From: Kofleriaceae bacterium
GTDB taxonomy: Bacteria > Myxococcota_A > Polyangia > Haliangiales > Haliangiaceae
NCBI GenBank assembly: GCA_046597055.1
Contig: JBKJLC010000060.1
Location: 1-47,977, forward strand
Direction: 5' to 3'
DNA length: 47,977 bases
How positions within the stretch are numbered: position 1 is the first letter of the stretch; each line of letters starts with the position of its first letter. The notes under the pieces are model-generated. The model was given only the letters and a program-made list of their open reading frames with translations. It did not search any database and was not told the origin of the DNA. Below are positions 154-3,275 of this stretch, one piece after another. Made by a program: the position numbers and the translations under genes.

Positions 154-2142
154 CTACGCGAACTGCGCGTGGCCGACGATCAGGCGATCGATGTCGGCGT
201 AGTGGTCGGGCAGGATGTCGCCGCCGAAGCGGGCGGTCGACCGCGAGCGCCGGGCCAGCCAGTCGCGGCCGAGCAGGCGGTGGCTGGCGAAGTCGAAGTC
301 GCCGATGCGCTTGGACGCGACCGTGGTCTCGGCGCGCGGGCCCGAGCCGACCCCGCGCGCGACGTGGAAGCCGGCCGCGAGCAGCGACGACCGGACCGCG
401 GTCGAGCTGGTGAACGTCAAGAGCTCGGTCGGCCGGTCGAGGTACCCGAAGATGCGGCGGAAGGTCGCCAGCGACCACATCGAGTTGTTGGTCTTCGACG
501 AGAACGGGTCGTAGAAGATCACGTCGGGCGGGGCGTGGTCGGTGAACGTCGCCATGAAGTCGCCCTCGCACAGGGTCCAGGTCAGGTGCTCGCGGCGGAA
601 CACCCCGTCCTTGTGCAGCATGTGGGGCGCGGCGTGGCGCAGGTGCACGAACTCCTTCTGGCGGCTGATCGCCAGGCGGAACGCATCGAGGTCGGTCTCG
701 AAGCTGACCAGCTCGACCGGGGGATGCCCGGGCGCGCGATCGAGCGCGCGGATCAGCGCCATCGCGTTGTGGGCGGCGCCCAGCCCGACGTCCCAGACCA
801 CCAGCGGCCGCGGCTCGCCCTGGTTGCTCACCGCGCGCGCGATCGCCGCCGACTGGGCGACGTAGACCTGGTCGGCCTCGACGTCGGGGTGGTTGACCGA
901 GTGCATGATCTCCCCCGACGGGAGGTGCTGGATGCTCGAGAAGCCGTGGACCGACGTGTGGACCACGAAGCTGCCGCGGGTGAGCGGCGCCGGCGCGTGG
1001 CGCTTGGGGTGGCGGCCGGGCGGGTTGTCCTGGTCGGTCAGCGCCAGCGCGACCCGGCGCTCGGCGTAAAAGGCGGCGAAGGTGTCGGCGCGGATGTGGG
1101 CGCGGACCTCGGCCATGAGCTTCATGTAGAAGCGCAGGTTGTGGAACGACAGCAGCTGCCAGCCCAGCGGCTCCTTGCACTTGATCAGGTGGTGCAGGTA
1201 CGAGCGGCTGTACAGGCGGCACGCCTCGCAGTCGCAGGTGGTGTCGAGCGGCTGCTCGGCGAACTTGTGGACGCCGCGGGCCAGCTCGACCTTGCCGCGC
1301 GAGGTGAACACCACGCCCTGCTGCGACCACGCGGTCGGCAGGATGCAGTCGAACATGTCGACGCCGCGGTGGATCGCCTCGAGCAGATCGAGCGGCGTGC
1401 CCACGCCCATCAGGTAGCGCGGCCGGTTTTCGGGCAGGAGCCCGGTCGTGAGCTCGCAGATGTCCTCGCGCGCCGACTTGCCCTCGCCGACCGCGAGCCC
1501 GCCGATCGCGAAGCCGTCGAAGCCGTCGATCGCGGTCAGCGCGGCCGCGCTGGTGCGGCGCAGCTGCTCGAAGCACGCGCCCTGCACGATCGCGAACAGC
1601 TTCTGCGGCGAGTCGCCGCGGGCCGCCAGCGAGCGCTTGGCCCACCGGTGGGTCAGCTCCATCGCGTCGCGCGCCTGGGCGAACGAGCTGGTCGACGCGA
1701 TGCACTGGTCGAGCACCATCATCACGTCCGAGCCGATCGCGCGCTGCATCTGGATCGAGCGCTCCGGCGTCAGCAGCAGCAGCTTGCCGTCGACGTAGCT
1801 GCGGAACTCGGCGCCGTCTTCGCCCATCGAGCGCGCGTGCGGCAGCGAGAAGATCTGGAAGCCGCCCGAGTCGGTCAGGATCGGCCGGTCCCAGCCCATC
1901 CACTTGTGCAGCCCACCCATCCGCTCGAACACCTCGATGCCGGGTCGGACCAGCAGGTGATAGGTGTTGGCCAGCAGCACCGGGGCGTCGAGCTCGTGGA
2001 GCTGTGCCAGCGTCTGAGTGCGCACGGTGCCCCGGGTGCCGACCGGCATGAACATCGGGGTCTCTACCGCTCCGTGGAGCGTGGTCAGGGTCGCGGTCCG
2101 GGCGCGGGACCCGGTGGCGCGGGCGTGGACTTCGAATGTCAC
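154..2142 (-). CDS. tgt: tRNA-guanine(34) transglycosylase fused to a C-terminal MnmC-type SAM-dependent methyltransferase
   Basis: Tgt motifs: TPMFMPVGT, LANTYHL, TDSGGFQ, LDQC, IVQG, GGLAVGE, YLMGVG, DMFDC and the Zn site CDCEAC...HNL. The C-terminal ~280 aa has WDVGLGAAHN, SFETD, EGDF, DVIFYDPFS..N..MW and TFTSS..VRSSLLAAGF, collinear with the MnmC methyltransferase domain. Confidence 0.92.
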   Translation of the reverse strand: MTFEVHARATGSRARTATLTTLHGAVETPMFMPVGTRGTVRTQTLAQLHELDAPVLLANTYHLLVRPGIEVFERMGGLHKWMGWDRPILTDSGGFQIFSLPHARSMGEDGAEFRSYVDGKLLLLTPERSIQMQRAIGSDVMMVLDQCIASTSSFAQARDAMELTHRWAKRSLAARGDSPQKLFAIVQGACFEQLRRTSAAALTAIDGFDGFAIGGLAVGEGKSAREDICELTTGLLPENRPRYLMGVGTPLDLLEAIHRGVDMFDCILPTAWSQQGVVFTSRGKVELARGVHKFAEQPLDTTCDCEACRLYSRSYLHHLIKCKEPLGWQLLSFHNLRFYMKLMAEVRAHIRADTFAAFYAERRVALALTDQDNPPGRHPKRHAPAPLTRGSFVVHTSVHGFSSIQHLPSGEIMHSVNHPDVEADQVYVAQSAAIARAVSNQGEPRPLVVWDVGLGAAHNAMALIRALDRAPGHPPVELVSFETDLDAFRLAISRQKEFVHLRHAAPHMLHKDGVFRREHLTWTLCEGDFMATFTDHAPPDVIFYDPFSSKTNNSMWSLATFRRIFGYLDRPTELLTFTSSTAVRSSLLAAGFHVARGVGSGPRAETTVASKRIGDFDFASHRLLGRDWLARRSRSTARFGGDILPDHYADIDRLIVGHAQFA

Positions 2143-2156
2143 CGGCGTCTTTTAGC

Positions 2157-3005
2157 TCAAGCGAACGCCCGCCGATAGCGCGCGTTTATCCCCATGTACA
2201 GCGCGTAGGCGATGAGCCCGGCCGCCACGATCCCGAGGAGGACCGCGCCCCAGGTCTGCTGGAGGATCTCGCGGAGGGCGGCGTCGGTGCCGATCGCCTG
2301 GCGCGCGTTGGCGTCGAGCCCGGCCTTGATGAGGAGCCAGCCCGCGACCGGGAGCACGACCCCGCGGGCGGCGATGCCGAACCGGCTGATGCGGATGAGC
2401 CAGGTCTCCTCGGTGGCCGACATCTCGTGGGTCTTCAGCTTCTTGCGGAACTTGACGGTGTACGCCTTCACCAGCTGGGAGATGCCGAACGCGATCACCC
2501 CGGCGCCGATCGCCATGATCAGCCAGTCGCCGCCGTCGGACTGCAGCGCCCGCTGGAGCCAGCCGCGCTTGCCGTCGCCGCCGGCCGTGCCGGCGACGGT
2601 CTGGAAGCAGTTGATCGACAGGAACGCCGCCAGCAGGCCGCCGCCGACCGCGCCGATCCGCTTGCCGATCCGCTTCAGCGGCTTGTCGTCGTGGTGCGGG
2701 GAGAAGGCGGCCTCGGCGAAGCGCCACAGCGCGTGGCAGGCCAGGCCGACGCCGAGGACCAGGAGCAAGATCTGGCCGAACGGCTGCTTCTTCACCTCGC
2801 GGGCCGCCTCCTCGTTGCCGAGCAGCGCGCCGCCCTCGCCGAGCGCGAGCCTGAGGGCGAAGATGCCGATGACCGCGTAGACGACACCCTTGGCGACGAA
2901 GCCGAAAGTCGCCGCGTGGTCCATCCACTTGCTGTTGGCAGCGCGCTCCGCCCCGTGCTTCACGGTGTCGATGGTGGTCACGTTCTCAGCAGTTGCAGTC
3001 ACCAT
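2157..3005 (-). CDS. DUF1206 family membrane protein
   Basis: Repeated GFVAKGVVY / GIAARGVV hydrophobic units with QPFG / QTWG..LL motifs. ATG at 3005 chosen because a sigma54-like motif lies upstream. Confidence 0.8.
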   Translation of the reverse strand: MVTATAENVTTIDTVKHGAERAANSKWMDHAATFGFVAKGVVYAVIGIFALRLALGEGGALLGNEEAAREVKKQPFGQILLLVLGVGLACHALWRFAEAAFSPHHDDKPLKRIGKRIGAVGGGLLAAFLSINCFQTVAGTAGGDGKRGWLQRALQSDGGDWLIMAIGAGVIAFGISQLVKAYTVKFRKKLKTHEMSATEETWLIRISRFGIAARGVVLPVAGWLLIKAGLDANARQAIGTDAALREILQQTWGAVLLGIVAAGLIAYALYMGINARYRRAFA

Positions 3006-3025
3006 GCCGTCGCACATCGCGGAGT

Positions 3026-3041
3026 TGCAGCGTGGTGGCCA
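3026..3041 (-). promoter_or_regulatory. sigma54-type -24/-12 promoter candidate for the DUF1206 gene
   Basis: Minus strand TGGCCACCACGCTGCA (GG-N10-GC, ends TGCA), 20 nt before the ATG at 3005. Confidence 0.45.
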
Positions 3042-3275
3042 CTCGATCCGAGGCGGACATGTCACACAGAGCGCCTCTGCCACGACCTGGCCCAGGGCGC
3101 GGGAGTGGGGCGAACCTGCGAACGGCACCGGAGTTTCGCGCGTCTAGGTATCGGCGTTAGCAGGTAATACGAGAAAATATGGCCGAGGGCTGCCGCGCGG
3201 GCCGCAGCCGCCGGTTGGCCGATCGGGCGGCGCCGCGCGCGTGAACCCGACCGGCGCTTGGCGTAGGGTCGGCCG

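Follow-up and report, generated by a model that had tools for sequence, protein, structure and literature searches.

What base, if any, does a protein that joins a tRNA-guanine transglycosylase (Tgt) to an MnmC-type methyltransferase write into RNA, and at which site? This question is raised by a gene in a 47,977-nt stretch of DNA from a Kofleriaceae bacterium (contig JBKJLC010000060.1, assembly GCA_046597055.1; hereafter, the window is this whole stretch), where a single unbroken open reading frame (ORF) of 662 amino acids (aa) runs from a GTG start at position 2142 to position 154 on the minus strand. The original prediction, made from the window alone, described one uninterrupted ORF with a complete Tgt (about aa 1 to 370) followed by an MnmC-like methyltransferase, and on this Pfam, hidden Markov model (HMM) searches and fold comparison all agree. 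Our best reading, which we hold tentatively and at somewhat less than an even chance, is that the protein would insert preQ1 (7-aminomethyl-7-deazaguanine) at a probably noncanonical RNA site and then methylate its nitrogen, possibly producing an undescribed tRNA base.

The first half of the protein (aa 1 to 370; positions 1033 to 2142, this and all other parts of the gene being on the minus strand) is a TIM barrel with a zinc subdomain. Pfam places TGT (PF01702) at aa 13 to 363 (E 3.5e-138) and Methyltransf_30 at aa 522 to 611 (E 1e-15), with no other Pfam domain, and the bacterial Tgt model TIGR00430 scores 439 bits for the window protein against a cut-off of 307 (435 to 469 bits for five other fusions). 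In an AlphaFold model built on 122 sequences (mean predicted local distance difference test score, 95; predicted template modeling score [pTM], 0.70), the Tgt half superposes on Zymomonas mobilis Tgt (3unt) with a Z score of 50.6 and a root mean square deviation (rmsd) of 1.6 Å over 363 residues. The full-length models have pTM values of 0.60 and 0.70 and do not define the relative placement of the two active sites.

The chemistry of this half appears to be intact. In a comparison of 73 fusion Tgts with 31 canonical Tgts (residue numbering is that of Z. mobilis Tgt), D102, S103, D156, Q203, G230, L231, A232, V233, E235, D280 and the four zinc ligands were kept in all 73 fusions and C158 in 72; these are the residues described as catalytic, guanine binding and preQ1 selecting in Tgt (PMC5699537, PMC3660597, PMC4425180). 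In the window protein, Asp91 (1870 to 1872) corresponds to the catalytic Asp102 (role from PMC5699537), Asp265 (1348 to 1350) to the nucleophile Asp280, and aa 214 to 220 (1483 to 1503) to the preQ1-type pocket loop G229 to E235, while the zinc ligands Cys303, Cys305, Cys308 and His334 lie within positions 1141 to 1236. The Val233-to-Gly and Cys158-to-Val changes given as determinants of the eukaryote-type, queuine-inserting Tgt (PMC3660597, PMC4425180) are absent, as is the preQ0-type pocket of archaeal TgtA and DpdA, with L231 and A232 kept throughout. Because the catalytic and preQ1 residues are kept, the pocket of the fusion is neither queuine type nor preQ0 type.

What has changed is the surface that, in canonical Tgt, reads the anticodon. 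Sixty-six columns are invariant in the 31 canonical Tgts. The fusions have lost only four of these, H127 (retained by 2 of 73), V282 (3), R286 (none) and R289 (2), all of them within the insertions that follow strands 3 and 8. Most fusions have Gln or Ala at position 286, and all 19 Leptospiraceae fusions have Glu there; position 289 is mostly Gln, and position 282 is bulkier in most; in the window protein the corresponding changes (V282 to Ile267, R286 to Ala271 and R289 to Gln274) fall in the remodeled start of insertion 8 (aa 267 to 275; 1318 to 1344). We take R289, V282 and K52 to contact U35 in the Tgt-RNA structure 1Q2R, although our literature searches found no paper giving such a contact for R289 or V282. 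The insertions of Z. mobilis Tgt are described as reading the GUN anticodon loop (PMC10164549), and R286 as lining the pocket for ribose 34 and phosphate 35 (PMC5395182). According to the accounts consulted, the Tgts tested on tRNA, both bacterial and eukaryotic, all read a U-G-U loop and serve four tRNAs (PMC3660597, PMC8136771). The fusion passes the Tgt HMM, but it lacks these anticodon-reading residues and is not the housekeeping copy, and it should therefore not be filed as a canonical Tgt.

The fusion Tgt is a divergent second copy and not a replacement of the housekeeping Tgt. The original prediction had singled out a second tgt, queA and queG as genes to look for, and all are present: the window genome (94% complete, with 7.6% contamination) also encodes another tgt, which shares 47% identity with the fusion Tgt, in the order queA-tgt-yajC-secD (yajC and secD were named by reading their translations), as well as queG and queF. 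Among 50 fusion genomes, picked from 79 for diversity and longer contigs, a standalone Tgt was found in 49, the exception being a 2.4-Mb metagenome-assembled genome that also lacks QueA and QueF; QueA was present in 48 of the 50 and QueF in 41. The possibility that the fusion is the housekeeping Tgt of its genome was rejected on the strength of the second tgt in queA-tgt order and of these standalone copies, and since the host still encodes the queuosine route, the fusion is not a replacement for it. The fusion Tgt is 42 to 45% identical to canonical Tgt, with no added domain and no enlarged insertion. In a quick, midpoint-rooted maximum-likelihood tree, a branch with an SH-aLRT (Shimodaira-Hasegawa-like approximate likelihood ratio test) support of 100 separates the Tgt domains of 73 fusions from the 31 canonical Tgts of the same genomes, and phyla are intermixed within the fusion side. 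Separately, we noted a divergent second QueA-like gene in the window genome (E 6e-46; G000:C76, L002 1474 to 2610), directly after a short-chain-dehydrogenase-like ORF, and similarly weak second QueA matches in five Myxococcota genomes.

The altered Tgt almost never occurs alone. In a scan designed to avoid the bias of starting from the methyltransferase, metagenomes were searched by the altered Tgt motif alone, which yielded at least 120 matches; of the 80 examined, 5 end at a contig edge and 2 are not Tgt, and in 71 of the 73 assessable loci the altered Tgt runs in frame into the methyltransferase. No split operon, with an altered Tgt beside a standalone methyltransferase, was seen in the 20 loci examined for this arrangement, and no standalone paralog of the methyltransferase adjoined a Tgt there. 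Together, the paralogy of the Tgt, its altered surface and the retention of the methyltransferase beside MnmC favor a coupled job for the two halves, and N-methylation of preQ1 is a chemistry that would fit both active sites.

The second half (aa 385 to 662; 157 to 990) follows an interdomain linker (about aa 371 to 384; 991 to 1032) that is variable in alignment and forms the lowest-confidence block of the AlphaFold model. It resembles the stand-alone MnmC2 of Aquifex aeolicus (3vyw) both in sequence (E 7e-10) and in fold, C-terminal extension included (Z score of 24.9; rmsd of 3.0 Å over 239 residues), and also matches 2qy6 (Z score of 20.6). With the MnmC2 domain of Escherichia coli MnmC it shares the equivalents of Glu101, Asp178 and Phe180 and the glycine loop. 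All 32 fusions sampled keep D451, G453, G455 and N459 of the glycine-rich loop that binds S-adenosylmethionine (SAM) (aa 451 to 459; 766 to 792), as well as Glu482 (697 to 699) and Asp545 (508 to 510), the equivalents of Glu101, which contacts the SAM ribose, and of Asp178, which is proposed to be the base that activates the substrate amine (PMC3648344). The most probable activity of this domain is SAM-dependent methylation of a primary amine, for which 5-aminomethyluridine (nm5U) and preQ1 would fit equally well.

The fusion domain nonetheless differs from MnmC2. The MnmC2 model NF033855 matches aa 410 to 611 at 75.6 bits, and five other fusions at 54 to 72 bits, under a cut-off of 136 that may itself miss true stand-alone MnmC2 proteins. 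A proline equivalent to Pro182 is also missing. In a tree built by a quick search and containing long branches, the fusion methyltransferase domains group together (SH-aLRT, 96) along with four standalone derivatives, and this grouping is nested in a broader, uncharacterized subfamily whose other members are standalone; MnmC2 proteins that score above the NCBI cut-off fall elsewhere in the tree. Standalone paralogs of 270 to 350 aa occur in Oligoflexia and Chthoniobacterales, with up to two per genome besides the fusion, and one locus (G453:C1:1224000-1242000) holds both a full fusion and, about 5 kb away, a standalone copy of its methyltransferase, the two being sisters in the tree. Three of 28 standalone paralogs adjoin leucyl-tRNA synthetase and four are near phosphoribosyl pyrophosphate synthetase or peptidyl-tRNA hydrolase; the 105 ORFs scanned around these 28 included some translation genes and no queuosine gene. 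The standalone paralogs may be further tRNA amine methylases.

Put in steps, our reading is that the Tgt half, with the required residues in place, would excise guanine from an RNA loop and insert preQ1 drawn from the host queuosine pathway. The changed anticodon-reading residues would make its site differ from, or extend beyond, the housekeeping U33-G34-U35, and the most likely place would be position 34 of a different G34 tRNA, one lying outside the GUN set or reached in addition to it. The fused SAM-dependent domain, whose catalytic residues are likewise present, would then methylate the 7-aminomethyl nitrogen to give N-methyl-preQ1. QueA adds its ring to the aminomethyl amine of preQ1, and because it uses that amine, N-methylation should block it; N-methyl-preQ1 would end the route before QueA, while the housekeeping Tgt, QueA and QueG would continue queuosine synthesis in parallel. 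A narrower proposal, in which N-methyl-preQ1 is written at the wobble position of non-GUN tRNAs by a Tgt paralog released from U33-G34-U35, must be regarded as doubtful. If we were to guess at targets from the change of R289 to Gln, the bulkier residue 282 and the retained K52, these would be G34-C35 tRNAs such as tRNA-Cys(GCA), tRNA-Ser(GCU) or tRNA-Gly(GCC).

Insertion and methylation of preQ1 by the fusion had been the core of the original prediction, and it has gained from the fit of both active sites and the evidence favoring coupling, although the methylated base itself remains inferred. The further idea of a nonqueuosine end product needs amending, in that the queuosine route (queA-tgt, queF and queG) is retained and not replaced, and the target then assumed, the four GUN tRNAs, may not hold now that the anticodon-reading residues are seen to be changed. 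Methyl-preQ1 is known from phage DNA, and our literature searches found no report of it in tRNA.

Several observations weigh against preQ1 insertion followed by N-methylation at a new site. Although the four lost columns are confined to the two insertions (4 of 10 invariant columns inside versus 0 of 56 outside), the Fisher value of 3e-4 is descriptive only, as we estimated the boundaries (108 to 135 and 282 to 312) with the data already in view and the sequences compared share ancestry. N304 is replaced by Arg in all 73 fusions and N290 by Arg in 49, and at the position of K52 a Lys or Arg is found in 72; the basic contacts may have moved rather than vanished, and UGU reading may still be within reach of the enzyme. 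The methyltransferase is truncated (two loci, with the first half only) or missing (two loci) in 4 of the 73 assessable loci, standalone paralogs of the same methyltransferase subfamily exist without an adjoining Tgt, and clustering of flanking ORFs in 101 loci, in search of a conserved neighborhood, returned only antisense shadows and generic families, with no link to queuosine genes. The remaining points concern the role of the second half as an ordinary MnmC2: its closest solved structure, that of Aquifex MnmC2, belongs to a proven nm5U methylase; MnmE is found in 48 of the 50 fusion genomes and MnmM in none; the fusion is the only credible PF05430, or MnmC2-like, protein in 32 of them (20 have a second PF05430 match, two of which are weak and were set aside); and the window genome has mnmE and mnmG, with MnmC1, MnmL and MnmM all lacking a match above cut-off and no other PF05430 protein. 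The mnmE, mnmG and mnmC genes were among those that the original prediction had proposed to look up. As separate observations, the four loci with a truncated or absent methyltransferase (L239, L294, L220 and L261) may represent decay of the module, and the window genome has two mnmG matches above cut-off (G000:C253 and G000:C194), one of them cut by a contig end, which may reflect the contamination.

The points on MnmC2 just listed are the strength of an explanation in which each half has its own substrate: the methyltransferase would be an MnmC2 that finishes mnm5(s2)U34, and the altered Tgt would have a target of its own or serve mainly as a tRNA holder. The retained SAM-binding and amine-activating residues suit it as well, and a preprint groups the fusion under MnmC2 fusions in the clause that concerns it (bioRxiv 10.1101/2023.12.21.572861). 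We nevertheless consider it rather unlikely. It leaves unexplained the near-constant pairing of the altered Tgt with the methyltransferase, the NF033855 scores are under the cut-off, and the fusion is kept under selection beside a canonical MnmC in the Leptospiraceae. There, a strong MnmC or MnmC2 match is present in 109 of 114 genomes, including all 22 that have an extra fusion-type match; 20 of these 22 sequences were retrieved, comprising 18 full fusions and 2 cut by contig ends, with 1 already in our sample and 1 left out. NF033855, scored on one of the strong Leptospiraceae matches and on three from related spirochetes, was passed by all four. The Leptospiraceae fusions keep their catalytic residues in 19 of 19 cases, and the median ratio of nonsynonymous to synonymous substitution rates, calculated from the 17 of 171 pairs whose synonymous sites are unsaturated, is 0.03 in the Tgt half and 0.12 in the methyltransferase half, values indicating that both halves are under purifying selection. 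This co-occurrence with a canonical MnmC argues that the fusion is not needed for methylation of nm5(s2)U34.

Other lineages can be set beside the Leptospiraceae. A separate protein above the MnmC2 cut-off was found in 5 of the 50 fusion genomes. In a 201-genome sample of Bdellovibrionota, 51 genomes gave a fusion-sized hit; a further related methyltransferase accompanies it in 33 of them, and three kinds occur together in four, a tally judged by score and frame length in which ten of the 51 were checked as fusions. In the order of the window's host, a PF05430 match is present in 72 of 135 genomes, in 39 of 79 high-quality genomes and, among the 15 other genomes of its genus, in 8 (two unpublished genomes, G197 and G198, are counted here). 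No MnmM match was found in any of the 135, with a Pfam model that was positive in only 2 of 14 control genomes; on these same grounds, exchange of the fusion with MnmM among relatives was set aside as an explanation. With 63 of the 135 genomes lacking PF05430 and none having MnmM, relatives without the fusion show no known substitute for it.

A second alternative keeps the chemistry and moves the target away from the tRNA anticodon, to another RNA loop, to DNA or to a protein-linked deazaguanine. The altered part of the Tgt is precisely its anticodon-reading insertions, and the patchy presence of the fusion within the host genus and the mixing of phyla in the tree are not what a housekeeping gene would show. 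There are precedents for repurposing of the Tgt fold, as in DpdA (PMC5699537); bacterial Tgt is described as acting on nontRNA loops in vitro (PMC3660597), and Cap10 was among our fold matches. We think this improbable, given that the fusion Tgt is so similar to canonical Tgt, with neither an added domain nor an enlarged insertion, and that its partner comes from a tRNA-methylase family. Moreover, the methyltransferase search found no match in viral contigs, phages or plasmids, and no defense or DNA-handling neighbors recurred in the flanking-ORF clustering of the 101 loci.

It is conceivable, if distinctly improbable, that the order is reversed, with the methyltransferase acting on free preQ1 and the Tgt half inserting ready-made methyl-preQ1. 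Bacterial Tgt is described as accepting N-alkylated preQ1 analogues (PMC9561289), and the loop after the catalytic Asp of the methyltransferase is unlike that of MnmC2 and of the standalone paralogs. On the other side, the base pocket is identical to the preQ1 type in all 73 fusions, the methyltransferase keeps the basic residue that corresponds to Lys236, which binds RNA in MnmC, and MnmC2 enzymes act on tRNA. Finally, the simpler alternative already raised in the original prediction, that two wobble enzymes are merely fused, the one an ordinary MnmC2 and the other a canonical Tgt that duplicates the housekeeping enzyme on GUN tRNAs, now seems very improbable: the score above the TIGR00430 cut-off and the public annotation as Tgt speak for it, but the standalone Tgt has not been replaced, RNA-reading residues invariant in canonical Tgts are lost, and the fusions form one separate lineage under strong selection that in the Leptospiraceae, where the methyltransferase is kept beside canonical MnmC, would be doubly redundant.

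Returning to preQ1 insertion coupled to N-methylation, the family to which it would apply is a broad one. At least 1,523 proteins of 364 to 1,159 aa match the C-terminal half (8,000 candidates were scored), and both Pfam domains are present in all 120 of the matches listed, the named ones being mostly from Kofleriaceae and other Myxococcota. Among GTDB genomes, at least 577 stretches were confirmed; in the best 80, ranked by likeness to the methyltransferase domain of the window and so favoring fusions, the Tgt is in the same frame as the methyltransferase in 79 and 1 begins at a contig end, and 2 are frameshifted within the Tgt half. Such recurrence of two-domain proteins in several phyla rules out an assembly artifact or a chance fusion. 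The hosts include members of Myxococcota, Bdellovibrionota, Verrucomicrobiota, Spirochaetota, Binatota, Riflebacteria, Melainabacteria, Kiritimatiellota and Thermodesulfobacteriota, and among them is a cultured, named organism, Chthoniobacter flavus Ellin428. The fusion is an accessory gene, probably a self-contained and patchily distributed RNA-modifying module. Around it we noted a DUF1206 membrane protein gene in the window (2157 to 3128, minus strand) that ends 14 bases ahead of the fusion start and does not recur beside other fusions, and, in a genome of the Opitutales (G014:C24:53222-58105), a queF at a distance of about 3 kb, likewise not recurrent. On one contig of the window genome, ARAGORN finds 25 tRNA genes on one strand within about 6.5 kb (about 67810 to 74361), an array of the type carried by mobile elements.

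How does the fusion compare with systems already described? With bacterial Tgt (TIGR00430; Z. mobilis 3unt and Thermotoga maritima 2ash) it shares the fold, catalytic aspartates, guanine/preQ1 pocket and zinc site, and it differs in being an extra copy with replaced anticodon-reading residues and an added C-terminal methyltransferase. The preprint cited above names TGT among MnmC2 fusion partners; those TGT/MnmC2 fusions have the same two-domain architecture and are almost certainly the same family, and the single clause given to them there carries no function, paralogy or residue analysis. The architecture is thus already known, but in the literature searched we found no account of the paralogy, of the residue changes or of co-occurrence with MnmC, and no published functional study of the fusion. 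In phages, the transglycosylase DpdA2 inserts preQ1 and a second enzyme, DpdM, N-methylates it (bioRxiv 10.1101/2023.04.13.536721), as we propose here, although on DNA and with separate, phage-encoded genes. This precedent, which the original prediction had invoked, is real, but the enzyme is unrelated: DpdM is described as a metal-binding DUF3109 protein, whereas the fusion has only TGT and Methyltransf_30 in Pfam and a Rossmann-type MnmC2 fold. Archaeal TgtA (acting at G15) and DpdA are also Tgt-fold paralogs described as working outside the GUN anticodon (PMC5699537); they differ in their preQ0-type pocket (Val/Val for L231/A232) and are only 16 to 24% identical to the fusion Tgt, and their family model TIGR00432 gives the window protein 127.7 bits against a cut-off of 350.

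The current annotation as plain Tgt hides this family, in which an intact active site combined with a rebuilt anticodon-reading surface leads one to expect a deazaguanine at a new site or else a new end product. This can be tested directly, as C. flavus Ellin428 is in culture and a published covalent-trapping method is described as identifying the RNA bound (PMC8136771), and an enzyme with another loop specificity would extend Tgt-based RNA labeling. Should N-methyl-preQ1 indeed be written into non-GUN tRNAs, it would be a new tRNA nucleoside, and at least seven phyla would harbor, in the fusion, a second wobble system based on deazaguanine.

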